From the NCBI GenBank assembly GCA_014905635.1, contig JABVCE010000008.1, forward strand, positions 62,001 to 126,000: a stretch of DNA of 64,000 nt. Reading direction: 5' to 3'. Shown piece by piece: positions 3,569 through 64,000 of this stretch. The notes under the pieces were generated by a model. That model ran no database searches. It was not told where the DNA came from and saw nothing but the letters and a program-made list of their open reading frames with translations. The DNA is from Scenedesmus sp. PABB004. Lineage: Eukaryota. The translations under genes and the position numbers were made by a program. Each line of letters starts with the position of its first letter. Positions within the stretch are counted from its first letter, which is position 1.

Positions 3569-3822
3569 ATGCAGTCGCTGCAGGCCCGCAGCGCGCGCTG
3601 CGGCGTCGCCCAGCGCGGCAGCAGCCGGCTACAGGTGGTGGCGCGCGCGGAGGCGATTGCCGTGCCGGCGGGCAAGAAGGCGAGTGCTGCTGCTGCCCGC
3701 GCGGCGGGCGGGGCGCGGGGGGCGGCCGACGGGGCCTGGCAGCGCCCCGAGCAGCGTGGCGCGGCAAGTACGGCGGCAATGGGCCATTGCCGGGCCGGCG
3801 ACGGGCGCCGCGCGGCGCGGCA

Positions 3823-3856
<34 letters not shown>

Positions 3857-5004
3857 TGCCGGCGGCCCGCGCCGACGCGCGCGTGCGCCCGCAGGTGGAG
3901 CCCAAGGGCGACCGCGTGCTGGTCAAGGTGGCCAAGCAGGAGGAGAAGACGCGCGGCGGCATCCTGCTCCCCGTGTCGGCGCAGAAGCGGCCGACGTCCG
4001 GTGCGCGTGCCGGCAGCGCCCGCGCCCGCGCCGCGGCCGGGAGCGCGCGCGCCCCGCCAGCAGCGGCGCCTCACGCGCCGCCGCCGCGCGCGCAGGCGAC
4101 GTGGTGTCGCTGGGCGACGGCCGCGTCGGCGACGGCAGCGTGCGGCCGTTCACGCTCAAGCCTGGGCAGACGGTGCTGTACAGCAAGTTTGGGTTCATGT
4201 ACACGGAGCTCAAGGCGGGCGAGGATGAGCTCATCCTCATCCGCGAGGACGACGTCATCGGTGCGTGCGTGCCTCTGTGTGTGTGTGTGTGTGGTGGGGG
4301 GGGGCGGATGGATGGATGGATGGGATTAGGAGGGGCGGAGGGGAGAGGGGGAGGCCGGCGCCGGCGGCGCGGCGGCCCGGCGGCGCGCGTGCCGGCGGCG
4401 GCGCGGCGGCCGACCCGCCGCGCCGCGTCGGCGCGCAGGCGTGCTGCCGCGCAGCGACGCGGTCGCGGACGACATCCCCGAGCTGGTGCCGCTGGGCGAC
4501 CGCGTGCTGATCCGGGTGGAGGAGACCGCCGACGTCACGATCGGCGGCGTGGTGCTGCCGGACAGCGCCAAGGAGCGGCCGCTGAGGTGGGGCGGCGCGC
4601 CGGGCGGCGCGCCGGGCGGGGCGCGATTGTGGCGGGTTGCCGCGCGCGTGGCCTGACCGGTGGGCCGGCGCGTCGCACCCGCCGCCACCGCAGCGGCACC
4701 GTGGTGCGCGCGGGGCCGGGCAAGTACGACGCCGACGCGGAGGGCGGGCGCAAGGCGATGATCGTCAAGCCGGGCGACAAGGTGCGCGCCGCCCGCGGCG
4801 TCGGCCGCCGCGGCGCAACGCGGCGCGGCGCGCACCGACTGGGGTCCGGGACGCTCACACCGCCCGCCGCGCCGTGCCCCCCTCCCCCCAACCAAACCAA
4901 AGGTGCTGTACTTCAAGTACGCGGGCGACAACATGGAGACGCCCGACGGCGCCAAGTTCATCGTGCTGCGCGAGGACGACATCCTCACCCGCCTCGCCGC
5001 CTGA
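3569..5004 (+). CDS. CPN23: Chloroplast co-chaperonin with two GroES domains (Cpn20/Cpn23 type), multi-exon, with transit peptide
   Basis: [26 protein letters not shown]...IREDDVIG; second domain [31 protein letters not shown]...[14 protein letters not shown]...LREDDIL; R/S/A-rich N-terminus. Confidence 0.93.
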
Positions 5005-5337: not shown

Positions 5338-7192
5338 ATGGCTAGGCCCCCGGGCGCAGCTTTGGCGGCGCTGCTGGCCCTCAGCGCGGCCCTGGGCGCC
5401 GCGGGGCAGCCCATCGTCGAGCCGGGCGACTCCCCGCGCCCTGCGCCGCAGCGCGCCTCCTTGTTCGACCGCGGTACCATTGCTGAGCTCCGCGACATCG
5501 GTGAGCGCCGGCACGGCGGCAGCGCGGCGCCGACGGCGGCGGCACCGGCGGCGACAGCGGCCGCGCCGCGCGCGCAGCTGCGCGCGCGGGGTGAGCTCAC
5601 CCTGCAGGGTGAGCTCACCCCGCGCCGCCGCCCCGCACGCGGCGCGCGCAGTGTCGGCCCTGCGCTTCCCCGGGAGCGCCAAGATGGCACCCGTGCTGCT
5701 CGACGAGGTCGACGCGCGCTCGTACGGCGGGGGCCTGTGGGTGCGCAACGAATTCTTGATCGACTTCGCCCCCGGCACGCCCCCCGACGAGCGCGCCCGC
5801 ATCGAGCGCCTCATTGCCAGCGAGGGCGGCGCCGTAATCTACCGCGGCGGCGTCGCGTTCGAGGGCCTCGTGTTTCGGGTGCGCGCGCGGCGGGGCGCGT
5901 GCGCAGCGCGCGCGCGCGCGGGTTGCCCGCCGCCCCGCTCATGCCCCGCGCCGCGGCCGCGCGCAGGGGCCCGAGAGCCTCGCCGGCAAGGTGCACGTGC
6001 TCAACTGCCTCGTCGACTCGCACGCTGTGCAGCGCGCCGCGCCCAACATGGTCTCCAGCGTCGACGCCGTGCAGCGCGACCCGGGGTGGGGCCTGGACCG
6101 CATCGACGCCCGCAAGCTGCCGCTTAACAAGCGCTACGCCTACAACTCGACCGGCGCGGGCGTGACCGTGTATGTCGTCGACAGTGGCGTCGCGACGGCG
6201 CACGCAGACTTTGGGGGCCGGGCAGCGTTTGGCGCCGACCTCATTAACGACGGCAGCCTCCAGGGCGACTGCCACGGCCACGGCACGCACGTCGCGGGCG
6301 TGGTCGCGGGGACGCGCTTCGGCGCCGCCAAGCGCGCGTCGGTCGTGTCGGTGCGCATCCTCGACTGCACCGGCGCGGGCGACAGCTCCGCCTTCTTCGC
6401 CGCGCTCGACTGGATCACGGCCGACGCGACCGGCGGCGCCCGGCGCAAGCGCTGCGTCGTCAACCTCAGCATCTCCTTTGGCGGCGCGGTGCCCATGATT
6501 GACGACGCGGTGCGGCACACGCGGCCGGGCGCGGCGCACAGCGCGGCGCCGCGCGGCGCGGCCACGCGCGCCGCCCTCACTCTCCGCGCCCCCTTCCCCT
6601 CTCCCGTGATTCTCTCGTTGTCGGCGGCGGCGCGCAGATCCGCAACGCCCAGAACGCGAGCGGCTGCGCGTTTGTGGTCGCGGCGGGCAACTCGAACAAG
6701 AACGCCTGCACCTACAGCCCGGGCAGCACGGCCGAGGCGATCACGGTCGGCGCGACCGACGCGGGCGACGCGCGCAGCTCCTTCTCCAACTTCGGGCGCT
6801 GCCTTGACCTCTTTGCGCCCGGCAGCGTCATCCCCTCGGCCAGCAACACCGACCCGACAGGCACCGTGCTCTACAGCGGCACCAGCCAGGCGGCGCCGCA
6901 CGTCGCAGGCGCGGCGCGCGGCGCGCAGCGCGGCGCGCAGCGTGGCGCGGCGCGCCTGCCGCAGTCCCGCAGCCGGCCGGCGCCGCCCGCGGTCCGCCGG
7001 CGCCCGCCGACGCCGCCGGCCGCCCGCCGCCCGCCGCCGGCGCGCGCAGGCGTGGCCGCGCTGTTCCTGAGCCGCAACCCCACCGCCAGCCCGCAGCAGG
7101 TGCGCGACGCGCTCGTCGCCGGCGCGGCGCGCGGCGTGCTGACTGGCATCGGCACGGGCAGCCCCAACCGCCTGCTGTGGAACCACTGGTGA
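5338..7192 (+). CDS. Secreted subtilisin-like serine protease (S8A, proteinase K/aqualysin type) with signal peptide and I9-like prodomain
   Basis: Signal MARPPGAALAALLALSAALGAAG; WGLDRIDAR; catalytic motifs VYVVDSG, HGHGTHVAG, VAAGN, SGTSQAAPHVAG; introns at ~5501-5651, 5879-5966, 6510-6637, 6909-7049. Confidence 0.93.
5584..5625. repeat. Perfect 42-bp palindrome in subtilisin intron 1
   Basis: GCGCGGGGTGAGCTCACCCTG|CAGGGTGAGCTCACCCCGCGC, checked base by base. Confidence 0.9.
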
Positions 7193-9383: not shown

Positions 9384-9530
9384 GGTGGTGTGGTGACGGC
9401 GGCGGCTCGGCGGAGGCTGTCGGCGAGCGCGTGTGTGCGTCGGCTGCGCTGCGGTGGGCAGCAGCCTGGCGGCGCGCCGGCGGCCGAGCTGAACCGCACG
9501 AGTGCCGTGACGCGCTTTAGCTGAGGCGCA

Positions 9531-11469
9531 TTACGTAATACCCTTCCCTCGTCGCTCACGCCGGGCAGCGCGTGTGCGGCTGCCCCGTCCCCAGTGGCTC
9601 GCGCACAGACGCGGCCGCCCGCGCCGCCTGCAGCGGCACCGCGCGCGCGCGCCGGCCTCCTCGCACGCGCGCCGGCTGCCCTGCGCGCCGCACGCGGCGG
9701 CGGCGTCCGAGGCCTGCCGTCCCCAGCGGTCCAGGCCGGGCGTGAACACGTCCGCGGCGCAGCCGCCGCGCCGCCACGAGCAGCCCGGCCGCGCGGCGCA
9801 CCAGGCGCGCGCCTGGGGCGCGCCCAGGCCGCGCGGGGCGCGGGCGCAGGCATCCAACAGCCGCAGGTAGCACGCGGCCGAGCAGTCGCCAACCGCGCTC
9901 GCCTCGAGCGCCGCGCTCGCCGCGCTCGCCGCGGCGCTCGCAACGCAGCTGTGGCTCGACGCCTCAAAGGCGCACCCGGCGGCGGACGGGCCCGCGGCCG
10001 CGCTGCACACGCGCGGCGCCCACGCCCCGGCGCCATCCATTGGGTACAGGTTGCCACACCCGCCGCTGGCGGCCGCGAGCGAGCCGGGGCAGGCGAGGCC
10101 GTTGACCGAGGTGAGCGCGCGCGCGGCGCGCGCCGCGTCGCCCGCGGCGGCCAGCGGCTGCGCGGCGAACGCCGCCCACTCGGCCATCGCCGTGCCGTGG
10201 CAGCCGTCGTCGTAGCCGGCGGCGCCGCTGCTCATGGCCCAGCCGCAGCCGAGGCCCGGCGGCGAGAGGTCGAGGCAGGCGGCGGGCGTGGTGAAAGCGG
10301 TGCACGCGTGGTCGCGCGCCGCGGCCGCGCTCACGAGCCTGCGCACGGCGCGGGGGCGCGGGCGCGGGCCGTGTCTGCGCTCCGCCGCGCCGCGCGGCGG
10401 GGCCCCGTGCGCCCCGCCGGCGGGGCGCGCCCGCGCCCGCCGGCGGGCGCGGCAGGGCGGGCGCGGCCGCACTTTGCGACGAAGCTCTCGGGCGTGCCGG
10501 GCAGCGCCAGCAGGTAGGCACGGGCGACGGTGCAGGCGCCAAGGTCGCGCCGCCACTCGCACGACGGCACAAGGCCCGGGGGCAGCGCCGGCGGGCTGCG
10601 CGCTGTTGCTGGCACCTCCGCCAGCGCGGGTGCGGGCTTGGGCACGGCGGCAGGGCCGGCGCGGCGCGGCGGCTTCGCCGGCGCGAGCGCCTCGTGTGCG
10701 CCCTGAAGCCCACCGAGCAGCGAGGCGGCGAGCGCGCCCACCGCCGCCGCTGCGCCGCTGAACAGCGCGCCCACCGACGCCAGCGGGCCCGCCAGCCCCA
10801 GCGCCGCGCCGACCGACAGCTGCGCGAGCGGCGGCGCCGCCGGTGCCTGCCTGGGCGCGGGCTTGCGCTCGGCCGCCGCTGCCACCGCCACCGGCCGAGC
10901 TGCAGGCTTGCCCGGCGGCGGCGCCGGCTTCGCCGCCTGCTTGGCCACCGGCGGTGGCGCCTGGGTCGCCGCCGCGGGCTTGGCCGGTGCCGGCTCTGCC
11001 GGGGCTTGACCGCAGGCGGCGGTGTGTTGCGGGCCGCCGCAGGAGTCTTGGCCGGGGCGGGCTTCGCCGAGGGCTTGGCCGCAGGGGGCGGTGCGTGGTG
11101 GGCCGCCGCAGCGAGCTTCGCCGGCGCCGGCTTCGACGGAGGCTTGGCCGCCGGCGGCGATGCGTGGTGGGCCGCCGCGGGCTTGGCCGGTGCCGGCTTC
11201 ACCGGAGGCTTGGCCGCGGGGGGCGATGCGTGGTGGGCCGCCGCTGTGGGCTTGGCCGGCGCCGGCATTGCCGGGGGCTTGGCAGCAGGCTGCCGTGCGT
11301 GGTGGGCCGCTGCCGCGGGCTTGGCCGGCGCCGGCTTCACCGGGGGCTTGGCCGCCGTCGATGCGCGGTGGTGGGCTGCCGCCGCGGGCTTGGCCGGCGC
11401 CGCCTCCGTGCCAGCCGCCGCTGCTGCAACGCCCAGCAGCAACGCCGCAGCCAGCGCTCGGCGCCACAT
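9531..11469 (-). CDS. Secreted protein with N-terminal Pro/Ala/Lys/His tandem repeats and a Cys-rich C-terminal domain (cell wall/matrix-like); apparent 1-bp frameshift near 11001; 3' end uncertain
   Basis: Signal MWRRALAAALLLGVAAAAAG; repeats PAPAKPAAAAHHxxPPAAKPPxK; downstream CEWRRDLGAC, CTAFTTPAAC, WCAARPGCSW; intron ~10335-10470. Confidence 0.7.
10960..11400 (-). repeat. Coding tandem repeat, about 7 units of ~66-69 bp (22-23 aa)
   Basis: Recurrent plus-strand unit GGCTTGGCCGG(C/T)GCCGGCTTC...TGCGTGGTGGGCCGCCGC. Confidence 0.85.
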
Positions 11470-11805: not shown

Positions 11806-14800
11806 ATGGCCGACACGCTCATCAAGGACCTGCTGCTGGGCGACGATGTGGCGGGGCAGGTGGAGCTGCTGCTCAACCTGCTCAGCGACGCAGCGGCGGG
11901 GCGGGAGCTGTCGAATGTGGTGTCTGAGGTCATTCAGGTGCGGCGGCGCGTGCGCAGAGCGCACGCACGCGCCCGGGCGTCACCGGAGACCGGGGAGGGG
12001 CCTGGCGGCTCCCTCGCGAGCAGCGGACCCACGGCCTGCCAGGGGCGGCGGCGGCGGTTGCCCTCGCCCGCTGATCAACCGGCGCCGCGGCGGCCACGTG
12101 GGCGCGCCCTCCTGGCGTCGCCTCCGCGCCCACGCCCGCCTCCTGAACGCGCAGGTGACCATTGCAGGCGGCGTGGGGCACCAGCCGGTGAAGAAGCTCG
12201 CGTACGACCTGTGCAAGGCGGTGTCGCTGCTACCGAGCGACTACTCCCTGCTCGTGGACGGCATCAAGGCGCGCTGAGCGTGCCGCGGCCCCCACCGGCC
12301 CTCGTGCAGGCGCCGGGCTGCGCGCCGAGCAGCGCCGGCAGCGGCCGCGCCGCTCACGCCGCCGCCGACGCCGCCGCGTGCTGCTGCTGCTGCAGAACGA
12401 CATCTCCTGCGGCGTGCCGGAGACGCAGGTGCTGGCGCTGCGCTTCCTCCCGCATCTGCCGCCGGAGCACCTGCTGCACCTGCTCGACAAGGGTGCGCCG
12501 GGGGGGGGGGGGGCTGTTCGCGGCGGCGGGCCCCGCGGCCAAGGCCCGGCGCGGCCGCCTCGGCCCGCCCACCGCGCCGCCGCGGTGGCCCGTGCGCCTC
12601 CGCAGGGGACATTGCCACCTTTGTGGCGCCCCACACGCGCAATGTGGCACCCGGCGTGCGCAGCGCGGCGACGTCGGCGCTGTGCGCCGTGCTGCTCACG
12701 CCAGAGGTGCAGGCGGCGCTCGCGGCCTCGCCAGGTGCGCGCCGCAGGCGGCGTGTGCCCGCCGCACGCGCCGCCGCGCAGCGCCCGCGCCTGTCGCCGA
12801 GCGAGCCGCGGGCGCGCCGCCACGCAGACCTGGCGACGGCGGGCAGCGACTGGTGGGACGCTGTCGTGGACGCGCTGGGCGACTCGATGCCGGCCGTGCT
12901 GGTCGCGGGGCTCGCCGCGAGCAACGCGCTCTTCGAGGCCGCGGCCGCCGGCGGCGGCGACGCCGCGAGCGGCAGCGCGGCGTCGGTCGCACCCGCGGCG
13001 GCGCGTGCGGCGCTGCGCCTCGCCGCCGGCATCGGGCCGCTGCTGGACACGTGGCGCATGCTGCCCTCCCACGCGCAGGTGCAGGCCGCCGGGCGGGCGT
13101 GCGGGCGCGTAGCAGCGGCCGCGACTCCGGCCGCCCACGCCGGGCCCTGCCCCGCACCGGCGCAGGTGCCCGTGATCCAGCTGCTGGGCCACCTCTGGAG
13201 CCACCTGCTCGCAGCCGACAGCGGCGCGGCGGCCGCCGCGTCGGCGGGGCAGCCCGAGAGCAGCAGCGGGTCGCAGGCGGCGGCGCTGCCGGGTATGCTG
13301 GCGTACCTCTCCGCCTGCCTGGCCAGCCTCAACCCCGCAGTCAAGCTCGAGGCCGCGCGCCAGATCCTGCGCGTCAGCAAGGCCACCGCCGCCGCGAGCG
13401 CGGCCGGGGGGCCGGTGCCGGGCTGCTGGGGCGGCTGCGCCTGGTGGGCGCGGTGCCGCCCGCCACGGCCGCCGCCGCGATCGAGGTGCGATGCGTCCTG
13501 TGCGGCCCGCGGGCAGCGCGGCCGCGCCGCCGGCGGCCCGCGCCCCCCACGCCCCGGCCCGCGCCCGAGGCCGCCGTCGCGCCCCGCCCGGCCGCACAGG
13601 CGCTGATGGAGCTGCAGGGCCGGCTGCTGGTTGAGGCGGCGCTGGAGGAGATTGTCAGCCTGGTGGCGGCCCACCTCGACGTGCTGCAGGCGCGGCGGCG
13701 GCGCCCGGCGCAGCGGTGCAGCGGCCCGACGCGCGGCGGCCCGCCGCCGCGGCGCGCCCCCTGCCCGCCGAGCCGAGCCCTCGCGCCGCGCGCGCCGCCG
13801 CAGGTGCCGACGCGGCTGGCGGTGCTGTCGCGGCTGTGGCCCATGATCGCGCTGCTGCAGAGCCCCACCGACCGGCTCACCGCGTTTGCGCACTCCTGGC
13901 GCGCCGCGCTGCAGCTCAGCAACGACGTCGGCGCGGGCGGTGGCGGGGGCGCCGACTGGCAGGACCCAGGCGACGCGCTGTCGTGCGTGCTGGCCGACCC
14001 GTTCCTGGAGGACGTGATCGCCGAGCGCCCCGCCGCCGCGGGCGCGCTGGCCGCAAGCAGCGCCGCGGCGTCGCCGCCGGGCGGCGACGCCGGCGGCGCG
14101 GCGGCGGGGCCGACCGGCGGCGCGGGCCCCGCGGCGGGGCCGACCGGCGCGAGCGCCGCGAGTGGCCCGACCGGCGGCGGGCTGTCGGCCGCGGATGCGC
14201 TGGGCCTGGGCCAGGGCGCGCCGGCGGAGGTGCCCATCACGCTGCGAGGTGGGGGAACGAGCGCAGCACGCGCGCGCGCGAGGGGGGCGGCGGCGCGCGC
14301 TGCTCGCGGCTGACAGTCGGCTTTCGCCGCCGCCGCCGCCTCCGCCAGGCTCTCTGGACGGCGGGCGCAGCCGCAAGAAGCTGCTCGCCTCCAAGGCCAA
14401 GGGCGTGCTGAGCAGCGGCGCCGCGCTGGCAAGCAACGTCGGCGGCGCGCTCGCGAGCGCCGCGGCGGCGCTGCCGCTGCGGTTCATGGACGGCGGCCGC
14501 CCCCAAAAGTGCGGGCCAGCGCTCCGCGGCGCCGCCTGCACGGGTCGCGCGGACGCGGCGCCGCCTGCGCCGCCGGGCGCGCTGACGCGCGGCCCCGCGC
14601 CCGCTGCTGCGCGCAGGGCGCAGCTGCCGGCGACGCTGAAGCAGGAGCTGGTGTGCACGCTGCTGCAGGTGCTGCAGACGCACCCCGCCGCGCAGGCGGC
14701 GCTGCAGCTGCCGCTGGGCAAGCCGGTGCCGCCGCCGCCGCCGCCCGCCGCGCCGCCGGCGGACGCCGCGCCCGCGGCCAACGGCGAGGCGGCGGCGCCG

Positions 14801-44389: not shown

Positions 44390-44405
44390 CCAGTGCCGCC
44401 CTCGT

Positions 44406-46928
44406 TCACGCTCGCGGCATCCAGAGCACTGCGGCCCCTTGCTGCCGCTTCACCGCGGCGGCAGCGCAGCGCATGGCCTCGGCCCAGCTCGCCTCAGCCC
44501 CGGACGCCCCGGCGCGCACGGCCAGGCCGGCGCCGGCGCGGCGGCGCAGCTGCGTGTCTGGCTGGCGTCCCTGCAGCAGTGCGTCCACGCTGCGCTCGAC
44601 GTCCAGGTGCAGGCGCAGGCTGCGTCACAGAGCGGGGCGTGGGCGGCGTGGGCAGGCAGCGTTGTAGGCACAGGCCTGTGGACCCTCGCCGGCCGCAGCC
44701 GGGCTGACCACCCTGCCCGCGCACCTGTCGCGCGAGGTGAGCTCGACCAGCGCCGTGAAGGTGGCAGCGCCCGCGCGCTCGGTCCGCGTCTGCGCGTCGG
44801 CGGCGGCCGCGCAGACGCGGTCAGCGAGGGACGCGCGGGGCAAGAGCAGCCTCGAGCGCGGCGCACGGGCAGACCCACCTTGGGGCCGCCGGCTGCGGCT
44901 TCGTCGCCGAGCGTGACCGTCGTCACGCCGCCGACGAGCGGGCGAAGCTCCGGGTTCTTGAGCAGCTGGCTCAGGCTGGCCCCGTGCGCGGTGCCGATCA
45001 GGATCACACCGCGCTGCGCGATCGTGCGCGCGGCCGCCACCTCCTGCGTGTGCGAGGCATGCCGGCGGCCGCGGTCAGCCCACGAGCTGGGCCCGGGCAG
45101 GCTGCAGGCAGTTGCCGCGTCCCAGGAGCGCCAGGCCTGGTGCGCGCACCTCCTTGGTGCCGATCTCGTCGACGATGATGACGTCGGGCGTGTGGTTCTG
45201 CACCGCCTCCACCAGCACCGCCGCCTGCTCCTCGCGGCGGCGCACCATCAGGCGCCGCGCGTGGCCGACGGACGGGTGGCGCTGCGCCGCGTCGCCTGAG
45301 GGAGACCCAGCGGGCGCGCGGGCAGCATGTCGGGCGGGCCGGAGCCCGGCGGCAGCCCGCGCGGCTGCCAGGCTGCTGCCGCGCGCTGGCCCGCTGGGCG
45401 CGCACCCGCGATCTCGTTGCTTGTGTCCACGATGACCACCGCCAGCCCGAGGCCGCCCTCCTCCGGCGGCAGGCTCAGCAGGCGCGCGCAGTCGCGCAGC
45501 AGCGTGGTCTTGCCGGTGCCTGCGGCGCGAGACCGGCGGCGCGCGGGGTCGGGGTGCGCCTGGCCGGCCCCAGCGCGCGGCCTGCGAGCTGGTCGCTGCC
45601 GCGGCCGCACGCGCGCCCAGCGCCGCGCCTGGGCGGCCGAGCACGAGCAGGCTCTGCTGACGCTCTGAGTCGGGCGCGCGGAGCGAGGCCTTGAGCCAGC
45701 TCAGCACGTCGGTCAGCGCCTTGGCCGCGCCCGGGACGTGGCGCCCGACGCGGAGGGTCAGCCCGATGACGCGCCCGCTGCGGTCGCGCACGGCGCTGAC
45801 GCGGTGCAGCTGCCCCGGCACGCCCAGCCGGTTGTCGCTCCCCCAGGGGAGGTCAAACGAGAGCTCCGTGGAGCCCGCTGGCTCGCCTGCGGACTCGCCC
45901 TCCGTGCTGTCGCCCACCGTGGCAGCGTCGCCGCCCGGCGCCGGCGACGAGCCGCGCTGCTGCGCGGCCGCCAGGCGGCGCAGCGCGTCGCGCACGTCGC
46001 GGCGCTCGGCCACGACCGGCAGGGCGACGGACGCTCCGTCCGACAGCCGCACCTGCACGGCGTGCCCCGCGTCCACCGCGACGTCCACCAGCAGCGGCTC
46101 GCCGGGCGCGGGGTCCGCGAAGCACGCCAGGTGCGGGCGCAGGCTGCGTGGCGGCGCGGGCGCGCGGGGTGAGCTGGCAAGCCGAGGCCCAGCCGCGCTG
46201 GAGTGCGCGGCCGCACCAGCACACCTGTGGGGTAGGAGCTCCAGGAGGCTCGCGGCGTGCGGGTCGCCGCCAGGGTGCGCTGCGACCATGCCGCAGGGCG
46301 TGGCGTTGTCGAGGACGTCGCCAGTGTGTGGCACAACCCAGCTGTTGGGCAGGGCCCGCATCTCCAGCGCGCGCCAGTCGGCCTGTGCCGCATGCGCCAG
46401 CGCTGCGCGTGCACCGCCGGCGCCGCCGCTGCTGGCGCTGCGGTCGCTGGGCGCGCTGTCGCCGTTGCTGCCGCTCAGCGACAGGCTGTCGTCGGTGTCC
46501 CGGCTGCCGGCGAGCACGAGCAGGGCAGAGGCGTCCAGCGTCACGGTGCCGCCGTTGTTGGCCGACGTGCGTTGTACGCCAAAGCACGGCGACGCCGCCA
46601 GCGCCTTGACGAACCGCATGCCAAGGCGGAGCTTGAGTGGGCTGGGCAAGGTTTTGCCCACCGCATTGGTCACCTGGGCCACTGTGCCGCGCATCCGCCG
46701 CCGCTTGGCGAGGTACAGCGCAGCGCGCCGGTAGACGGCAACCTCCGCCGCGCTGGACGCCGCGGGCCACACCCGGTCAACCGCCCGCCGCACGGCGTCG
46801 GCGGAGGGCGCCGCCGAGGTGGCAACGGCGCGGCGCGGCGGCTGCGGCGCGGCGGCACCGGTGCGGCGCTGCTGCGCCAGCAGCTGGCGTCCCCGCCAGC
46901 GCGCGGGCGCGGCGCGGCGGAGCCGCAT
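44406..46928 (-). CDS. ycf45: Ycf45/SpoIIIAA-like AAA ATPase with transit-peptide-like N-terminus and an extra N-terminal domain; no R3H domain seen
   Basis: LHRVSAVRDRSGRVIGLTLRVGR, Walker A LGRPG|TGKTT, VVIVDTSNEIAG, EAVQNHTPDVIIVDEIG, GVILIGTAHG, LVGGVTTVTLGDE. Confidence 0.88.
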
Positions 46929-47730: not shown

Positions 47731-48417
47731 GCCAGCATCTGCGCCTCCGGCAGCTCCTCCGCCAGGCCCGGGTGCGCCGGTGCGAGCCTGGCCGCTGCGG
47801 GCGCGGGCGCGGTGGCGCGGCGGGCTCTCGCGCGCAGCCCGTGGTGCGGCGCGCGGCACGACGGCGCCCGCCCGCCGGCGCGCGCCGCTGGCCGCACCTT
47901 GCTCATAGCTTTGCAGCGCGAGGACGGGCTCGCCCAGGTTGAGGTGCGCGCGCGCGAGCGTGACGTGCGCGTCGGGCCAGTCTGGCCGCAGCGCCACCGC
48001 CTGCCGCGCCGCCGTGACCGCCTCGTAGCTGCGCCCCAGGCCGTCCAGCACCTGCGCGCGCATCTCAAACGGCTCCGCCAGGCTCGGGCAGATCTGCGGC
48101 GGCGGCGGTGGCGGCGTCGCGGCGCGTCGGTCCACGCGTGCAGCGGCGAGCGAGCGCGCCTCGCGCTGCCGCGGCCGCCACACCAGCGCCGCCTGCTCCC
48201 AGCAGCGGAGCGCGACGAGCGGCTGCCCCGCCTCCTGCGCCGCGACGCCCTTGTCGGCCCAGCGCCGCGCCGCGCCCGCCGCCGCCGCCGCGTCGCTCGC
48301 CGCCGCCGCCGCGTGCGCGGCGCCGCCCTCGTCGCCGTCGTCCGCCGCAAACGCTGCGAGCGGCGGCCGCGGCAGCTTTGCGGGCCGCCCGCCGCCGCCG
48401 CCGATGCGGAAGGCCAT
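47439..48417 (-). CDS. TTC33: TPR repeat protein, TTC33-like, 3 exons
   Basis: KGVAAQEAGQPLVALRCWEQAAL|ICP...EMRAQVL...AVALRPDWPDAHVTLARAHLNLGEPVLALQSYEQ. Confidence 0.75.
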
Positions 48418-48833: not shown

Positions 48834-51643
48834 ATGAAGCAACGGGACGTGGACTACCTGATCCTGCAGTACCTCAAGAAGCGCGGGTGCGGCGGCGCGC
48901 CGGCCGCGGCGGCGGCGCGGGCGCGGGCACGGCGGCAGCGCCGCGGTCGCAGCCGCCCTCGCCCCGCCGCGCTGCCGCACGTCTCAACGCGCCCGTGCGT
49001 GCCCCGTGTGCCCCGCGCCGCCGCCGCGCGACCGCGGGGCAGGCTGGATGACGTCGAGCGCGCGTTCCGGTCGCGGTCGGGCTTCGACGCCGCCGCCGGC
49101 GGCGAGGCGGCGGCGCTCGGGCACGCGCTCGACGACGACGCGGGGCTGGCGGGGCTGCTGTTTGTGGTCGCGGCCGAGGCCGACCCCCGCGCCTACGTGG
49201 CCGCGTACGACGGCCTCGTCGCCTGGACGGACAGCTGCCTCGACCTCTACAAGGTGCGAGCTGTGTGTGCGGCGCATCGCACGGCACGCGCAGCGCGCGG
49301 CGCGCACAGCGGCACAGCACGCAGCGCGGCACGCGCAGCAGCGCACACACACACCAGCAGCGCGCGCCGGTGCCGCGACGGCAGCCCGCGCCGGCCGCGT
49401 GCTGCGCGGAGGCCCGACGCACCCCTTTTCCCCGCCCGCGCACGGGCGGCAGGCGGAGCTGGCGCGCGTGCTGTACCCCGTGTTTGTCCACGTTTACCTG
49501 GCGCTGGTGCAGCACGGCGCGAGCGGGGAGGCGGCGGCGCTGCTCGCCAGATACAGGCGCGGCGGCGGGAGCGAGAGGGACGGGGGGCGTGGTGGGGCGG
49601 TGGTGGGGCGCGGCGCAGCGGCGGCGCAGCGGCGAGCAGCGGCGCAGCGCCCACGCGCGCCCACCCGCGCCTGGCCGCCGCGGGCGCAGGCGGCGGCTGG
49701 TGGAGGTCGGCGGGCGGCAGAGCAGCGTGCGCGCGCAGGAGCTGACCGAGCTGCAGGCCGTCGCGGTGGCGCAGCACCTCGACGTCAACCCCTTTGCGCG
49801 CGCGGCGCGGGCGCAGCGCTGCGGCGTGAGCCTGTGCACCTACAGCTTTGAGCTGCTGATGCACCACCTGCAGGCCGCCAAGCAGTGGCTGCTCCTGCAC
49901 ATCATCAACAGCCACGTGCGCTTCGAGGTGCGCCGGCGCGGCGCGGCGCGGCGCCGCCGCTGCGGCCCGTGCCGGCCGCTGCGGCCCGTGCCGGCTGCCT
50001 GCCCCCTGCCTCGCGCCCACCCTGCCGCCGCCGCGCCCCCCGGCGCCTGCAGCTGTACGAGGGCCGGCCGCTGATGGACCCTGTGGCGGGCGGCGACGAG
50101 GAGGGGCGCGGCCTGCTGCAGACGCGCGCCGGCGAGGCGGCGGGGCCGGTCAACGCCACGCCGCTCGACCTCGGCCTGCTGCCCGGCGGCACCGAGGATG
50201 CGTTCGCGACGCAGCGCCTCCAGGTGCGGCCCCAGCCTCGCGCGCGGCCTCCGCGGCCCCACCACCCCGCACGCAGCTCGCGCCGACCCGGCCGCCAGCT
50301 GCCGCTGCTCACGCCGCCCCCGCTCGCCCCGCCCCTGCTGCCGCCTCACGCGCCGCCGCCCCGCCGCCGCCGCCGGCGTCGGCCGCAGGAGGAGGAGGAG
50401 CGGTTTAACCGGCTCGTCGCCAATGCCTCGAGCGCCGCCGCGCGCGCCGCGGCCGAGGCGGAGGACGCGGGCCTGGATGGCGAGGAGGCGATCACAGAGG
50501 CGGAGGCCGCCGCGAGCGCCGCGGCGGCGGCGGCCAACGCGAGCGTCAAGCGCCTGCGCGCGACGCGCGACCGCGCGCTCGGCGCGGCCAAGGCGAAGCA
50601 CCAGGAGATGCTGGAGAGCCGGCGCACGGCCGAGGCCGCGGTGCGCCAGGCCGTGGGTCAGCAGGGGGAAGCGGCCGCCGCGCACGGCGGCCGCGGCCGG
50701 CCGCGGGACGCGCTCTCACCCCGCCATCGCCGCCGCCATCCCCCCTCTCCCCGCCCGCCGCCGGCCCTAGCTGCCGCTGCTGCCGCTGCACGAGCGCGTC
50801 GCGGCGGCGCAGGCGGCCGACCTCGCGGCGCGCGCGGGCGTGGGCCCGGGGGAGCTGCCGTCGGCGTGCTTCTTCACGGTGCTGGACGCGCGCGCTGGCC
50901 TCACCGCGCTGGCGACCAGCCCCGACGCCAAGCTGCTCGCCACGGGCTTCAGCGACGCGGCGCTGCGCCTGACCCACCTCGGCGCGCTCGGCAAGGCGCG
51001 GCCGCGCCTGCGCGAGCGCGCGGGCGCGCCGCGCGGCGCCAAGCGCGGCCGGGGGCGCGAGATCGACGTCGCGGCGCCGCTCGAGGTGGACACGGAGGAG
51101 GCGGAGCTGCAGGTGCGACCGCGCGCGCGCGGCGGCACGGCCGGGAGGCCGGCGGCGCGCACCCGGCGCGCCTTGGCCGCCCACTGCATCAGCGCGCCGC
51201 CCCCTGCCTGCGCCGCAGGAGGAGCTGGACGGCGTGGCGCAGGCGGCCACGGCGTCGCTGGTGGGCCACTCGGGTGAGCCGCGCCGCGCGGCGCCCGCGC
51301 TGCGCCGCGCCCGCCCGTGCCGCCGCCCGCGCCCACGCGCGCGCGCGCCGCCGCCGCGCCCGCCGCCAGGCGCCATCAACGCGCTCGCGTTCAGCGCGGA
51401 CCAGCAGCTGCTGGTCAGCGCGTCGAGCGACGCCACGGTGCGGCTGTGGAGCACCGAGCTGCGGCGCGGGCTCGTCGCGCTGCGAGGTCACGTCTACCCT
51501 GTGTGGGACGTCGCGACCTGCCCGCACGGCACCTACGTCCTCAGCGGCGGCAGCGACCGCACCGCGCGCCTGTGGAGCATGGAGCACGCGCGCCCGCTGC
51601 GCATCTACGCCGGTGCGCGCCCCGCCCGGCGCCCACGGCATGG

Positions 51644-51724
<81 letters not shown>

Positions 51725-56800: not shown

Positions 56801-58887
56801 ATGCTGAGACGGCTGGCGACGCGGGCCGCCACGCTGCAGGCGTCGCTCCAGCAGGCGCTGGCGGCGCCGGGCGCGGCGGCAGCAGCAGCAGCAGCGCCGG
56901 GCGGCGCCGCCGCGGCAGCGCGTCTCGGCGCGGCCGGCCGGCGCTGGGCGCCGGGCAGGGTGCGGCAGCTGTTCTCGTCGGCTGAGGGCGGCAGCGGCGG
57001 CGGCGCGAGCGGCGCGCCGCCCAAGAGCATGCTCGACGCGGCGATGCCCCACCAGGGCGCCGCGGCGGAGGCGCTCGGCACCGCGGCGGCGGTGCGCCTG
57101 CGCGCGATCGCCGAGGCCGAGGCGAGCAAGGAGGGCGGCGCGGCGTCGGGGCCGGGCGTGCTGCGGCGGCTGCTGAGCCTGCTCGTCGACGCGGCGATGC
57201 TCGGCGGCCTCGCGGCCACGGTCGCGGGCGGCTACACATACTACAGGCGCGCAGGGCGGCCGGGCGGGGGCAGGAGGGGGACTTTGTGGCTTGCGGCACG
57301 CCGCCGCGCGCCGGGCGCCCCCGAGTGGCCGCGCCGCGCGCTCACCGCGCCGCCCCCGCGCGGCCACCACTGCCGCCGGCGCAGGTACAGCCTGCCAGAG
57401 GTCGAGGCGATGCTGGCAGAGGCGGAGGGCGGCGCGGAGCCGACGCTGCAGGGCCGCGCGTGGGCAGGGCTGCTGCGCGCCTACCTCAGCGCGGCGGTGC
57501 CGATCGACCGCAAGGTGCGTGCGCGAGACCCCCCGCGCTGCGCCGCGCCGCGGCTGCGGCGGCGGCGCCGCACTGCGGCGGCGCGCGGCGCCCGCGCGCC
57601 GCCGCCCGAGCCCCGCGCCGCGCCGCGCCGCGCCGGCGCCGCCCAGGTGCGCGAGTACACCGACCCCACGTGCGACGCGCTGCTGCCGGAGCTCGCGCCG
57701 GAGCTGCGGGGCCGCGTGAAGACGCTGGTGCTGGACCTGCAGGACGTGCTGGTGCACAAGGAGTGGAGCCGCGCCAAGGGCTGGCAGGCGCGCCGCCGCG
57801 CCGCGCGGCGCGCAGCGCAGCGCCGCGGGGGGGCCGCCGCCAAGCGCGCCGCCGCCGCCGCGGCGCCGCAGGTGCTGAAGCGCCCCGGGGTGGAGGCGTT
57901 CCTGCTTGAGATGGGGCGCCGGTACGAGGTGGTGGTCTACACAGATGAGGCGGCCATGTACGCGGGTGCGCCGCGCGCCCGACACCGCACACCCACGCCG
58001 AGCCGTGCGCCGCCCCTGCCGCCGCGGCGTGGAGCGCGGCACCGCCACCGCGGCGGCGCCCGCGTGCGAGCTCGGAGGCCCCTCGACTAAACCCTTGCCC
58101 CCGCTGGCTCAAAACCCCGCCCTCCCCGCCGGACGCCAGACCCCGTGATCAACAAGATCGACCCCCACCGCGCCATCACGTACCGCCTGTACCGCCAGGA
58201 CACCCAGGCGCGCCGCCGCCGCCGCCGCCACCACGGCGCCCCGCGGCCCCGCGCCCACCGCGCCCACCGCGCCCGCCGCGCCCCGCCGCCGCCGCCGGCC
58301 TCATCCCACCTCGCCGCCGCCGGCCCCGCCCCGCCGCGCCATGCCTCGCTGCCGCGCAGTACAAGGACGGCAAGCACGTGCGCGACCTGTCCAAGCTCAA
58401 CCGCGACCTCAGCCAGGTCCTCTTCATCGCAGGTGCGCAGCGCCGCCACGTGGCCACGCGGCCCCCACGCGCGCCGCCCCGCGCCGCGCCTCGGCTGCTC
58501 AGCGCGCTGGCGCGGCGCCGCCGCCGCGCGCAGCGGACGAGTCGGCGTACGCGTTTCAGCCCGGCAACGCGCTCAAGCTGCGGCCGTGGGACCCGTCCTC
58601 GTCGCCGGGCGACACGACGCTGCTGGACCTCATACCCTTCCTGCAGATGGTGCAGGAGGTCGCGGTGCAGGTGCGCGCGCGCACGCGCGTGCGGCCGGGT
58701 CCAGCGCGCGCGCGGCACGCGCGGCGCGGCGCGGCCGACCCCGGCGCCGCGGCTGCAGGACGTGCGCGACGTCGTGCGCAGCTACGACGGCGAGGAGGAC
58801 GTGGCGGCGGCCTTCAAGGCGCGCATGGCGGCGCTGGCCAAGCAGAAGAAGGCCGGCGGCGGCGGGCGCTTCGGCACGCGCGCGTGA
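56801..58887 (+). CDS. TIM50: Mitochondrial import inner membrane translocase subunit TIM50 (NIF/FCP1 domain)
   Basis: Presequence MLRRLATRAATL, TM segment, KTLVLDLQDVLVHKEWSRAKGW, KRPGVEAFL, YEVVVYT, YKDGKHVRDLSKLNRDLS, LLDLIPFL. Confidence 0.92.
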
Positions 58888-59179
58888 GCCAGCGCGCGGG
58901 GCCGCGTGCGCGTGCGCGGCCCACCCGCGGCGGCGTCGCGGCGCCGCCGGCAGCGCGCTGTGTGCTCGCCGGACGCGTGGTGGGGCGGCTGCAACGCGCC
59001 GCGGCCGGGTTATGAGCGATTGCCGCGCAAGACCCCGCGGGGCGTTCGCGGTGCCAGCAGGCCGCCCCGGCCGCGTGCCGGTCTCCGCTCCCTCCCAGCG
59101 CAGGCTCCGCGATCAGACGCAGCGTTCCAGCACACGGCAAGTGCCACACGCGCCGCCTGGGCGCAGCAGGGCCTTCGCG

Positions 59180-61366
59180 ATGGGCCTGGGCGACTGGCGC
59201 AGCTGCCCGCTGTTCAAAGCGCCCGCGGACCGATGGGACGCGCTCAGCGCCGAGCAGCGCACCGCGGCGGGCGTCGCTGGGGGCGTCACGCTGGCGCTGG
59301 CCGGCGCGCTCGCGTACAGACGGTGCGCCCGGGGCGAGCGGGCCGCCACGCGCATGCGCTGGGCCGCTCCGCCGCGCCACGCCCAAGCTGGCGCCTGCGC
59401 AGCGGCGCCCGGGCGCGGCAGCCGGCGCTGATGGCCGGCGCGCGGCAGCTCCCCGCCCCACGCGCGCGATTCCGGCCGGCGCGCGGGGGGCGGGCGCACG
59501 GCGTTGGAGCCGGGCGCGGCGCCGCCATTGCGGTGGCGCGGGGGGCTCGCCGCCGCGGCGCGGCGCCGCGCGGCGGCGCGGCGCGGCGCCCGCTGCTGCC
59601 GCCGCCGCGCCGACCTGCGCCGCCCGCCGGCGCCCGCCGCGCAGGTACGTGGACGCGCGCAAGAACCGTCCGACCATCTTTGAGCTGAGCGGCGGGTCCA
59701 TCGAGAAGGACAAGGTGAAGAACGAGTGGGACAACTACGAGTCGAGCTATGGCAAGGAGGCGGGCGCGGGCATCACCGACCGCAGCAAGACCACGCAGCT
59801 CGTGGACGTCTTCTACTCCCTCGTCACGGGTGCGCGCGCGCGGCTGGCGGCCCGCGGCTGGGGCGCGCAGCTGGGCCCGCGGCGGTCGGGCGCCGCAGCG
59901 GGCGGCGCGCCCGCGCAGCGCCGCCGCCAAGCGGGCCCGCGGCGCGCGATCCTGGCCCCGCCTCCCCGTCCGCGCCCACACTTCTTGCTCGCGCGTGCGC
60001 GCGCGTGTGGCACGCAGACATCTACGAGTACGGCTGGGGGCAGTCGTTCCACTTCAGCCCGCGCCTGCCCGGCAAGACCTGGGCCGCGAGCGAGGCCGCG
60101 CACGAGGCGCGCGTCGCGGTCGAGCTCGGGCTGCGCCCCGGCATGAAGGTGCTCGACTGCGGCTGCGGCGTGGGCGGGCCCATGCGCACGATCGCCGCCG
60201 TCAGCGGCGCGCACGTCACGGGTGCGCGCGGCGCGGCGGCGGGCGGCGGCGGGCGCGGCGGCCGGCTGCGTCGGCCCCGCTGCGCTCCGCCACGCCCTGC
60301 GCTCACCCGCCCTGCCCGCCCCGCCCCGCCCCCCGGTAACTCCACGGCCAGGCATCACCATCAACCAGTACCAGGTCGACCGCGCGACGCACCACAACGC
60401 GCGGCTGGGGCTGTCGCCGCTCACGGACGTCGTGCGCGGCAACTTCTGCGAGCTGCCGTTTGCGCCGGGCAGCTTCGACGCGGCGTACGCGATCGAGGCG
60501 ACCTGCCACGGTGCGGCGCGGCGCCGCCGCCGCAGTGCCCCTCCTCCACCCCAGAACAAAAGCACCCCTCCCAGCCTCACCTCCGCCCGCCGCCACCCAC
60601 CCGCCCTCCCGCCCCGCGCCCCGCGCCCCGCGCCCCGCCCCGCGCGCAGCCAACAAGCTGGAGGACGTGTACGGCCAGATCTTCACCGCGCTCAAGCCGG
60701 GCGGCGTGTTCCTGACCTACGAGTGGGTCAGCACGCCGGCGTTCGACGCGGCCGACCCGGAGCACGTCCGCATCATCGACGAGATCAACTTTGGCAATGG
60801 CCTGCCGGAGATGCGCACCTGGGCGCAGGCCGAGGCCGCCGGCGCGGCGGTGGGGTTCAAGCTCGTCACCAGGCGCGCGCGCGCGCAGATGCGGGCGCGC
60901 TGGGCGCCGCGCCGCGGCGGCCGCGCAGCGCGCGCAGCTGTGCGTGCGAGCCCGTCCCCGAGCCCGCCGCCGCCGCCGCCGCCGCGCAGCCTGGACCTGG
61001 CGACGTCGTCGGAGGTCGCCGGCGGCTGGTACGGCCGGCTCGAGGAGCTGGCGTGGCAGAACGAGGTGCGCGCGCGCAGCGGCGGCGGGGGCGCACGCCA
61101 CGGCAGGCGGGGGCGGGCCGCTCTGCGCCGCGCGCTGGGCACCCGCGCGGGGCGGCGGCCGAGCCGCGCCGCGCCGCGCGTCGCGCCGCGCGTCGGCGCA
61201 GGTGAGCCACGTCGTCGTGAGCGCGCTGGACGCGCTGTGGCTGGCGCCCAAGGGCCTCAAGGAGGTGCACAACATGCTGCGCAACGTCGCGCGCAGCCTC
61301 GTCGCGGGCGGGCGCACGGGCGTGTTCTCGCCCATGCACATGCTCGTCTTCCAGAAGCCCAAGTGA
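59180..61366 (+). CDS. SMT: Sterol C24-methyltransferase (ERG6/SMT family, SMT2-like N-terminus)
   Basis: [77 protein letters not shown]. Confidence 0.95.
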
Positions 61367-61965
61367 GCGAGACAGAGAGGCGCCGCAGGCGGAGGGCGGG
61401 CGCGGGGAGAGGCGGCCCGGGGGCAGCGGCCCCGCGGGCGGGCGGGAGCGGGGCGGCGGCGGCAGCCGCGAGCGAGGACGTCGCTTGTGCGGCGCGTGCG
61501 TGCGCAGCGCCTCGGCGCTGCTGCTGTGGGTGGTGGTGGAGCGGCTGGGTGGAGGGGGGATTGCCTCTGGCTGGGGGCGGCGCGTGCAACGCGCGCGTGG
61601 TGCGAGCGCCGACGGCAGCACCAGGCAGGCCGCGCACAGCGCACAGCGCTCGCCCGGCGCCAGCACCACCACGATCGGTGCCACGCCAGCGGCCCGGCGG
61701 CGCGGCAACACGCGCACGCCGGCGGTGGCCGCAGCAGCAGCGCGCCGCCGCGCGGGGCGGCAGGGGCGGCGGCGGGCCGGGGCGCGCGGCGGCCGCTGGC
61801 ACGGTGGGCCTGGGAGTGCAAGGGGAGCGCGCAGGGCGCTCTCCGTGCATCGCCCGGAGCAGCGAGGTTTAGCATCACCATGGCGGCCCACGCCCGTAGC
61901 CCGCCGCGCTCGCGCTGAGCGCCCTCTCTCAGCGCGTGCCGGGCCGTCAGCGGTCGAACGCCACC

Positions 61966-64000
61966 ATGGCGGTCGGCAAGAACAAGCGCATCAGCAAGGG
62001 CAAGAAGGGCGGCAAGAAGAAGATGTAAGCGCGCCGCGCGGCGCCGCGAGGGGGCGCGGCGGGGGCCGGGGCGTCGGCTGAGGCCCGCCGCCGCCGCGCA
62101 GCGTGGACCCCTTCACCAAGAAGGACTGGTATGATGTGAAGGCGCCCTCCATGTTTGCCGTGCGCAACGTGGGCAAGACGCTCGTCACGCGCACCCAGGG
62201 CACCAAGGTGCGCGCCCTCGACCGCGCGGGCGGCGGACCGGGGCCCGCGCGGCCGCGGGGCGGGCATCGCCGAGCCCGCCGGCGCCCCGGCGCCCGCAGA
62301 TTGCCTCTGACGGCCTCAAGGGCCGCGTGTTCGAGGTCTCCCTGGCGGACCTGCAGAAGGTGCGCCGCCCGTCGCCGCGCGGGCAGCGGGCGCGGCGGGA
62401 GGGGCAGCAGCAGCCGGCGCGCGCGGATGGTCGGCTGCTGCCGGCGCCGCCGCCGCGCACGCGCACGCGCACGCGCCCGGGCCGCCCCCCTGCCGGGCGT
62501 GGCGCACGGGAGCAAGACGGCGGGCGGGCACCGGCGCAGCGGCGCGCGGGCGGCGGGCCAGCACAGCTCGCGGCGGCGACGGCGGCAGCAGCGGCGGCGG
62601 CAGCAGCGGCGCGGGGCGGGCGCCGACGCGCCCCGCGCCGGCCGCCGCAGAACGAGGAGGACGCGTACCGCAAGATGCGCCTCCGCGTGGAGGACGTGCA
62701 GGGCCGCAACTGCCTCACCAACTTCTGGGTGCGCGCGCGCGCGCGCGGGCGCAGGCGTGGCAGGGGCGGGCGCAGGAGCCGCTGGAGGCGGCGCGCAGCA
62801 GCACCACGAGGCAGCGGCAGCGGAGCCGCAGCGGAGCCGCAGCGGAGCGGAGTGGCAGCGACGCTGTGGCGGCAGCTGCTGCAGCAGCGGCGGCGGCGGA
62901 CCGCGATTGGCGGGCGAGCAGCCGGAGCCGGCGGGCGAGCAGCTGGCGGAGCGCCGGCGGTGGCACCCGTCAGCCTCAGCGGCAGCGGCAGCTGGAGCTG
63001 CTGCGGCAGTCGCGCCGGCGGCCGCGACGGGGGCAGCCGCAGCACCGGCAGCGGCGGCGGCGCGCGGGGCACAGGGGTCCTGCCCCCCTCGCGCACGGCC
63101 CGCACAGCATCCCGCACCCCGCTCACGCTCTCCTCGCGCCGGGCGCTGCGGCAGGGCATGGACTACACGACCGACAAGCTGCGCTCCATGGTGCGCAAGT
63201 GGCAGACGCTGATCGAGGCGCACGTGGACGTCAAGACCACCGACGGCTTCACGCTGCGCATGTTTGCCATCGCCTTCACCAAGAAGCGCCAGGGCCAGAT
63301 CAAGCGCACCGCGTACGCGCAGAGCAGCCAGGTGCGAGACGCGCGCCGCGGCGGCGCGGCGGCGGCGGGGCGCGGGGCGGCGGCGGGGCGCGGGGCGGCG
63401 GCGGGGCGCGGGGCGGCGGCGGGGCGCGGGGCGGCGGGGCGCGGCCGCCGCTCGGCAGCGGCCGGCCCGCGCCAGCGCCAGCGCTGCTGGCCTGCCCCAG
63501 CGCCCGGCCTGCGCGCCACGCTCACCCGCCGCCCCCCCCCCCCCCCCCTCTCTCCTGCGCCCCTGCCCGCGGCCCTGGCGGCCAGATCCGCACCATCCGC
63601 AAGAAGATGGTTGAGATCATGGCGCGCGAGGCGGGCGCGTGCGACCTCAAGGACCTGGTCGCCAAGTTCATCCCCGAGGCCATCGGCAAGGACATCGAGA
63701 AGGCCTGCCAGGCGCGCACGCCGCGGCTGGCGGGCGCGGCGCCGCGGCGCGGCGGGCAGCTCGCGCGGCCGCAGGCGCCTGTCGCGGCGGCGGTGGCGGC
63801 GGCGCTGACGCCCCCGCTGCCGCGCGCGCCGCTGCCCCCGCCCGCGCCCCGCTCCTCCGCGCTGCTCCCCGCAGGGCATCTACCCCCTGCAGAACGTGGC
63901 CATCCGCAAGGTCAAGGTGCTCAAGGCGCCCAAGTTTGACCTGCCCAAGCTCATGGAGGTGCACGGCGACTACACGGAGGAGGTGCCCGCCAAGGTGGAG
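61966..64000 (+). CDS. RPS3A: 40S ribosomal protein S3a (eS1), 3' end beyond the window
   Basis: [92 protein letters not shown]. Confidence 0.97.
63353..63443. repeat. 15-bp G-rich tandem repeat (GGCGGCGGGGCGCGG) in an RPS3a intron
   Basis: About 5 tandem units with G4 runs. Confidence 0.75.

Follow-up and report, generated by a model that had tools for sequence, protein, structure and literature searches.

Do the many introns that begin with GC rather than GT in a 64-kb stretch of the Scenedesmus sp. PABB004 genome reflect an altered splicing machinery, or are they ordinary introns reshaped by base composition? The whole stretch, hereafter the window, is 79% GC and belongs to an assembly of 39.97 Mb in 80 contigs. 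Its proteins are nearest to those of Scenedesmaceae green algae; Tetradesmus obliquus proteins are the matches of the window's TIM50 and RPS3a, and the exons of a TPLATE-like gene are matched exactly by a public protein (P0086) whose source labels it Scenedesmus. An initial annotation listed 14 GC donors and attributed them to altered 5' splice-site recognition, through variant U1 or U6 small nuclear RNA (snRNA) or variant U1C, co-evolved with extreme GC content. The observation is confirmed, and part of the interpretation stands: GC-AG introns are indeed frequent and linked to extreme GC content, and the feature is real, genome-wide and of a kind already reported in other GC-rich algae. Genome-wide GC pressure acting on an ordinary spliceosome is probably its best explanation.

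GC donors in the window

All 14 coordinates read AG/GCG (the slash marks the exon-intron boundary), 13 of them as GCGCG and one as GCGAG; those at 25147, 39470, 39838, and 42869 lie on the minus strand. A self-trained, two-strand, homology-free gene model, in which GT, GC, GA, GG, AT, CT, and TT donors start from equal priors, calls a GC donor exactly at each of the 14. For the homology test, all in-frame donor/acceptor pairs were enumerated and each was scored against related proteins. The initial annotation held that homology forces all 14 sites. This is so for 11 (6909, 12269, 13690, 25147, 39838, 42869, 49557, 57247, 57788, 58208, and 63712, with 49557 forced on the donor side only), and not for 3680, 39470, and 60873, which are called by the ab initio model only. 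Across the window, 19 of 130 predicted introns (14.6%) are AG/GC (first estimate: at least 14 in roughly 100); a further 105 are GT, and six are doubtful GC calls without a preceding AG. The GT donors are more varied than the predominant GTGCGC first described, as this hexamer accounts for only 35 of the 105 and the three commonest GTGCG-type hexamers together for 62. The 19 AG/GC introns are listed below; the names TPLATE, JMJ22, and CPN23 are taken from the initial annotation.

3680..3894, plus strand: GC-AG intron, CPN23-like chaperonin; AAG/GCGAGT; ab initio delta log likelihood (logL) 9.1; not homology-forced
6909..7049, plus strand: GC-AG intron, subtilisin; CAG/GCGCGG; a 47-codon insertion within the AGVAAL stretch relative to PDB 4dzt
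9628..9812, minus strand: additional predicted GC-AG intron; CAG/GCGCGC; ab initio only, delta logL 5.0
12269..12395, plus strand: GC-AG intron, TPLATE-like gene; AAG/GCGCGC; rank 1 of 88 pairs; in P0086; relatives GT 14/14
13690..13803, plus strand: GC-AG intron, TPLATE-like gene; CAG/GCGCGG; rank 1 of 112; in P0086
21107..21244, minus strand: additional predicted GC-AG intron; CAG/GCACGC; ab initio only, delta logL 20.8
24999..25147, minus strand: GC-AG intron, JMJD6/JMJ22-like gene; CAG/GCGCGG; exons map to consecutive JMJD6 residues 173 and 174
36311..36433, minus strand: additional GC-AG intron, HAP2/GCS1; CAG/GCACGT; PF10699 positions 272-290 (residues 1-19/20), then 292
37573..37750, minus strand: additional GC-AG intron, HAP2/GCS1; AAG/GCGCGC; ab initio; Pfam only roughly continuous
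39381..39470, minus strand: GC-AG intron, DUS1; CAG/GCGCGC; ab initio delta logL 14.1
39672..39838, minus strand: GC-AG intron, DUS1; AAG/GCGCGG; rank 1 of 111; relatives GT 9/9; Pfam continuity
42683..42869, minus strand: GC-AG intron, CTH1/AcsF cyclase; AAG/GCGCGG; exons meet at NF010172 positions 109 and 110
45520..45628, minus strand: additional predicted GC-AG intron; CAG/GCGCGG; ab initio only, weak, delta logL 2.7
49557..49689, plus strand: GC-AG intron, TAF5; CAG/GCGCGG; acceptor less certain
57247..57384, plus strand: GC-AG intron, TIM50; CAG/GCGCGC; top pair 94.4 vs best GT 71.7
57788..57871, plus strand: GC-AG intron, TIM50; CAG/GCGCGC; top pair 191.3 vs best GT 108.4 and read-through 153.3; relatives GT 5/5
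58208..58359, plus strand: GC-AG intron, TIM50; CAG/GCGCGC; top pair 188.6; range tested holds no in-frame GT alternative
60873..60989, plus strand: GC-AG intron, sterol methyltransferase (SMT); CAG/GCGCGC; ab initio delta logL 12.8; no homolog obtained
63712..63874, plus strand: GC-AG intron, RPS3a/eS1; CAG/GCGCGC; top pair 188.8 vs best GT 155.8

All seven model introns of TIM50 rank first by homology, three of them with GC donors, as do all six of RPS3a, one with a GC donor. The test is blunt in poorly conserved stretches: 5 of 12 GT introns in the TPLATE-like gene, which gave no family match in a profile search of window proteins, do not rank first. The DUS1 site at 39470 lies in a variable region, where the intron ranks third of 76 and scores 55.2 against 57.8 for read-through. 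The exon preceding 3680 is transit-peptide-like and without homolog, and PDB searches with CPN23 exon 1 and with SMT returned nothing useful. For TAF5, PF04494 position 60 ends the exon and position 61 resumes at residue 7 of the following one. Among the five additional introns, 36311..36433 in HAP2 is confirmed by Pfam.

Frequency across the genome

The genome sample comprised the window and 40 pieces of 20 kb (864 kb, ~2% of the genome); the model was trained on the first 464 kb, leaving 400 kb (20 pieces) held out. AG/GC donors open 274 of 1,720 predicted introns in the sample (15.9%, confidence interval 14.2-17.7%), a fraction well away from the value near 1% at which the initial annotation would have given up its observation. 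The remainder are 1,349 GT introns and 97 GC calls without a preceding AG, with which the GC total rises to 371 of 1,720 (21.6%). In the held-out set, 115 of 753 introns are AG/GC, and they occur in 20 of 20 pieces. Extrapolating from 274 per 864 kb, natural GC donors in the whole genome would number in the order of ten thousand.

Several controls bear on these counts. With a matrix shared with GT, the dinucleotides GA, GG, AT, CT, and TT together take 43 of 1,735 calls compared with 377 for GC, and GA and GG (12/1,735) stand at background. When GC is forbidden, a single free alternative class takes up 95-184 calls, a majority of them within 30 nucleotides of a GC call (GA 100/143, GG 115/180, CT 109/172) and the remainder farther away, which implies a background of ~5% false calls in free alternative classes. 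Because of this background, the 97 non-AG GC calls were kept out of the headline count. They are also shorter and skewed to length 3n+2 (48/97, p 0.003), and one of them or more takes up what looks like a single-base deletion in coding sequence. In a synthetic control with the called GC donors changed to GT, 0-2 of 967-968 calls were GC, though this control is partly circular.

Prp8 serves as an independent check. Its model of 2,340 residues has GC donors at 11 of 32 introns, all AG-preceded. Two PDB-anchored exons lie 1,026 residues apart, as in human and in 8xi2, across 16 introns (four of them GC), and Pfam positions are continuous over four GC junctions. Together with the 11 window sites, this colinearity places GC starts and AG ends at positions that the proteins require, as expected of U2-type GC-AG introns. 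Under GT-only gene finding Prp8 loses 180 coding bases. Such gene finding damages many genes, and it may be for this reason that related algal annotations show low counts.

Donor context, pairing and the branch site

The initial annotation regarded the usual compensation, a strong AAGT match to U1, as absent. Compensation is present, on the exon side as the exonic AG and in the intron at +4 and +5, where +5G is favored and +4G avoided. AG precedes 274 of 371 GC calls but only 507 of 1,349 GT donors, and GC makes up 274 of 781 (35%) of all AG-preceded donors. Of the 274 AG/GC donors, 262 have +5G, and the flanking consensus of the GC-AG introns (-1G, +5G, exonic AG) is stronger than that of GT donors. 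The GC share of AG-preceded donors also depends on the following trinucleotide, reaching 41% before GCG and 82% before ACG (18/22), and falling to 4% before GGG. Even with the shared matrix, +4G occurs in 3 of 240 GC donors vs 75 of 454 GT donors, against an intron background of 40% after GGCG; some detection bias in this deficit is possible.

The mean number of Watson-Crick matches to U1 is 4.84 for AG/GC donors, 4.77 for GT donors without AG and 5.65 for AG/GT donors. AG/GC pairing thus equals the level of non-AG GT donors, and the gain at -2A therefore offsets the loss at +2U. Human GC donors have been described as requiring U5 loop 1 and U6 pairing together (PMC11732430), and the pairing pattern found here fits that cooperative account. 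Positions +2, +3, +4, and +6 of the donor consensus do not match the U1 complement.

Across 1,567 introns of all kinds, a branch motif C[T/C][G/C]AC (CTGAC, CTCAC, CCGAC) peaks 30-39 nucleotides from the 3' end. CCGAC is commoner than CTGAC and there is hardly any CTAAC, even with a canonical U2; this U-to-C shift parallels the shift at the donor. The branch site and canonical U1, U2, U5, and U6 are as expected of U2-type introns. No T-rich minor-class (U12-type) motif was seen in the donor profile, no search for U11/U12 having been made.

Ancestry of the introns

The direction of change was read from relatives whose open frames run on into the intron, so that the next residue reveals the donor, V standing for GT. 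Relatives have GT in 5 of 5 cases at TIM50 57788, 14 of 14 at TPLATE 12269 and 9 of 9 at DUS1 39838 (28/28). Adding an RPS3a intron whose donor is also GT in this alga (11/11), no GC was seen in 39 observations at four positions in related species. Since relatives use GT at the same positions, these three orthologous introns appear to be old, with GC derived from GT. Screening metagenomes with the TIM50 alignment did not help to compare relatives: 79 of 80 loci matched in one block, and the only locus with an intron has a GT donor.

Spliceosomal RNAs and proteins

The 5' end of both U1 copies and the ACAGAGA box of U6 are canonical, contrary to the variant U1 or U6 snRNA that had been proposed. 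The suggestion of a variant U1C fares no better, as the zinc finger of U1-C is present and looks conventional. U4, U5 loop 1 and the part of U2 that pairs with the branch site are likewise canonical, and no U1 5' end, U6 ACAGAGA box or U5 loop 1 changed to complement the new donor was found. The two U1 genes (L001 and L002, 1501-1659, contig C46) are identical, and a DNA search of the assembly matched only these two and no further U1. Three other matches to a degenerate U1 5'-end pattern all fall in protein-coding genes and lack a U1 match, a candidate GC-complementary U1 5' end (L214) lies within a protein-coding exon, and a second U6 match is a 3' fragment without the ACAGAGA box.

U1, U2, U4, and U5 are all encoded on contig C46 (L001, L002, L025, L026, L027), with U4 and U5 less than 1 kb apart. 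An upstream element (CGTGG then TGTTA) is common to one U1, one U2, U4, and U5, and is missing from the other U1 and U2 copies; U1 and U2 may each have a single working copy. The first exon of U1-C matches two places with equal scores (L051 on C1, near the contig end, and L052 on C61) and is duplicated or redundantly assembled.

Genes for U1-C, METTL16, SNRNP27K, U1-70K, LUC7, and Prp8 are present. Loss of METTL16 or of SNRNP27K has been linked to shifted splice sites (PMC11732430); here both genes appear to be retained, with open models. Departures from the human U1 small nuclear ribonucleoprotein (snRNP) occur elsewhere. Loop I of both U1 copies has C at human position 29 (A29C) and U at position 35 (A35U), and U1-70K (L135:334-408, minus strand) aligns Met and Ser with human Arg190 and Arg200 (R190M/R200S), in a short and weak alignment (E 1.2). 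In the structure of the human U1 snRNP, A29 forms a pair with A36 and is stacked with Arg190 and Arg200 of U1-70K (PMC4383343). U1 pattern scans returned 0 stretches in viral contigs and 27 in prokaryote genomes, and 11 of 11 distinct genuine U1 genes, all eukaryotic contaminants of prokaryote genomes, keep A29. Such eukaryotic U1 genes, a tandem array among them, are contaminants of several prokaryote genome bins (L137-L161).

Base composition as the probable explanation

The introns would be ordinary major-spliceosome (U2-type) GC-AG introns, raised to ~16% by a genome-wide G + C pressure whose source would be mutation bias and/or GC-biased gene conversion. Under this pressure old GT donors would have changed from T to C at +2. 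The change would be accepted almost exclusively at exons with a terminal AG, which pairs with U5 loop 1 and U1, and in introns that have G at +5 and a base other than G at +4, so that total pairing stays at the level of weak GT donors. The sites, their frequency, the context rule, the canonical snRNA pairing regions, and GT in relatives are observed in the DNA; the logic of pairing with U1, U5, and U6 is inferred, as is the population-genetic balance.

The C/T ratio is 6.8 in intron interiors and 20 at four-fold sites. Against this, C:T at AG-preceded donors is 274:507, corresponding to selection for T of ~2.5 log units, so that the cost of +2C becomes measurable. Such selection would persist, balanced by a roughly 7:1 neutral C:T in introns. 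A one-parameter composition model with selection held constant gives 1.6-1.9% GC-AG at 32-36% GC and 5-6% at 62-67% GC. Annotated non-canonical introns (GC-AG pooled with AT-AC) amount to 1,235 of 113,733 (1.1%) in Arabidopsis, 1.4% in Physcomitrella, 8,057 of 114,347 (7.0%) in Micractinium conductrix and 7,090 of 124,435 (5.7%) in Chlorella sorokiniana (PMC6310983). Composition with modest selection roughly accounts for the size of the effect, and no new machinery is needed. For mammals, GC donors in strong contexts have been proposed to become fixed neutrally (PMC2490688), and splice-site GC is weakly correlated with genome GC across kingdoms (PMC7072748). In the window, the HAP2/GCS1 gamete-fusion gene is apparently intact (33509-38522, minus strand); sex, and hence GC-biased gene conversion, is therefore compatible.

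Several points weigh against this explanation. The preference for C over G at +4 is unexplained by U1 pairing, and intron GC is alike in GC and GT introns (0.870 vs 0.866, p 0.14). U1 loop I and U1-70K appear to bear matching substitutions. The model is calibrated on this genome, a single point, and for other species lets overall genome GC stand in for that of introns. It also over-predicts the annotations of Chlorella variabilis (484/70,993), Gonium (293/100,177), Auxenochlorella (19/33,105), and Monoraphidium (19/67,746), all at 63-67% GC, and of Coccomyxa (1,179/69,321 at 53% GC) (PMC6310983). Three of the 14 sites lack homology forcing, and that the GC sites are spliced as modeled is deduced here from DNA alone.

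Alternative explanations

The alternative that survives best, although we consider it unlikely, is a remodelled U1 snRNP (A29C with U1-70K R190M/R200S, or other protein changes) that relaxes 5' splice-site proofreading, with GC pressure then filling the space. Both U1 copies have C29 where all 11 contaminant U1 genes have A, Met and Ser would replace the two residues that stack on A29 in the human structure (PMC4383343), and most donors form only ~5 Watson-Crick pairs with U1. Nonetheless, besides the weakness of the alignment, an Arg one position later may stand in for R200, and loop I binds U1-70K without contacting the splice site. The changes may also be common to low-GC-AG algae, as the comparison set holds no chlorophyte U1 or U1-70K. 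The rest of the RNA recognition motif, U1-C and two aligned Prp8 exons look conventional, and composition alone is roughly sufficient. There is a small chance that such a co-evolved U1 snRNP comes with a partly new donor grammar, in which +2 is a position like any other that can be compensated and +4C is favored above +4G; if so, it would be a natural mutant for whatever normally enforces GU at the donor.

It is very unlikely that positive selection favors GC donors as weak or regulated sites that serve alternative splicing or tune expression. For mammals, an accumulation of GT-to-GC changes and their enrichment in genes with alternative splicing have been discussed, but the same paper prefers neutral fixation in strong contexts (PMC2490688). 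The sites here occur in constitutive core genes (11 in Prp8, and in RPS3a and TIM50) and are spread over all 20 held-out regions.

Direct pairing of a variant U1, U6, U5, or U2 snRNA with GCGCG donors, as first proposed, is highly improbable. Such an RNA would account for the four positions at which the donors depart from the U1 complement; moreover, among first-look candidates the covariance searches scored only 41 of 245 for U1 and 48 of 671 for U6, and parts of the genome may be missing from the assembly. Yet every pairing region found is canonical, the only U1 copies are two and identical, and the stray matches are protein-coding or, for U6, a 3' fragment.

A systematic assembly error turning AG/GTGCG into AG/GCGCG can be given hardly any credence. 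Single-base deletions do appear in the assembly (TPLATE near 17250-17293), and the 3n+2 skew of the non-AG GC calls points the same way. If AG-GT-GCG were miscalled, however, the word should also be depleted at non-donor sites, and at antisense positions it is not (odds ratio 1.01, 0.79-1.29, vs ~0.49 expected). In addition, AG/GC intron lengths are uniform modulo 3 (92/84/98, p 0.58), and the GC share obeys splice-site strength rules. At 17206-17394 (plus strand) in the TPLATE-like gene, homologs are continuous coding sequence and an apparent single-base deletion shifts the frame; the gene model and P0086 both invent an intron there.

Introners are known from algae, but insertion of the GC-AG introns by an introner-type transposon is the least probable reading of all, rejected because there are no sequence families (an AT-containing 14-mer is shared by 25 of 274 GC introns vs 13 of 270 GT introns, the commonest being CA-type repeats) and junction duplications are not in excess in the genome sample, and the positions are not new, which contradicts it for the three introns found with GT in relatives.

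Other features of the window

The JMJ22-like gene contains a 9-nucleotide micro-exon of three codons (25373-25381, minus strand). A near-identical duplicated segment that includes an intron-like stretch (44012-44410 and 47347-47794, minus strand) confuses the gene model upstream of CTH1, and an intergenic repeat of ~500 bases, located by eye, has copies at about 26860-27400 and 29140-29690. In Tetradesmus obliquus (OEZ86_008193, 008195), as in a second source, the locus numbers of the TIM50 and RPS3a homologs differ by two, which suggests that the TIM50-SMT-RPS3a order (56801-64000) is conserved. Two Monoraphidium RPS3a models (P0059, P0062) have insertions and a skipped segment at junctions corresponding to intron positions here; these oddities could be mis-annotation at non-GT donors.

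Comparison with known systems

Still higher GC-AG shares occur in haptophytes and dinoflagellates. The literature covered, which leaves out most subscription journals, holds no GC-AG report for Scenedesmus or Sphaeropleales, nor did broader searches give one from green algae; passages from the main text and supplement of a Monoraphidium paper did not bear out a high share in that alga. P0086 already uses two GC donors (12269, 13690), and the feature is thus present in at least one annotation. The present genome would be the first case found here in Sphaeropleales.

The closest parallel in level is that of the pelagophytes, with ~14-17% GC-AG in Aureococcus anophagefferens and ~14% in Pelagomonas calceolata, credited by the authors to GC content, and 0.32% in the low-GC relative Aureoumbra (bioRxiv 10.1101/2024.10.30.620910). 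The fraction is similar and the genome is GC-rich in both cases. Pelagophytes are stramenopiles, however, whereas this is a green alga with dense introns (~6 per gene) that are old and have been shown to be GT in relatives; here the pairing regions of the snRNAs have also been checked. Among GC-rich green algae, M. conductrix, C. sorokiniana, Ostreococcus tauri (8.5% major non-canonical) and Micromonas pusilla (5.6%) also lie several-fold above the plant mean of 1.2% (PMC6310983). At ~16%, the share here would be roughly twice the highest non-GT value (8.5%) in that table of 121 annotated green-plant genomes, whose counts come from annotations and pool GC-AG with AT-AC.

Mammalian U2-type GC-AG introns (<1%) arise by GT-to-GC conversion in strong contexts (PMC2490688, PMC11732430). 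Those described here are similarly GT-derived and depend on -1G and +5G, for which cooperative pairing of U5 loop 1 and the U6 ACAGA sequence is the explanation given, but their intronic consensus is GCGCG rather than U1-like, and +4G is avoided. The context rule (exonic AG, +5G, no +4G) bears on the interpretation of +2T>C variants. The copepod Eurytemora affinis has GA and GG donors, with a purine at +2, in recently gained introns (PMC5714493). It shares with this alga non-GT donors, a near-obligate exonic AG and a double-digit share of introns; here, in contrast, GA and GG stay at background, and the rule of a pyrimidine at +2 is intact. Set beside these systems, the alga provides a case for testing whether base-composition pressure alone can reshape splice-site grammar.

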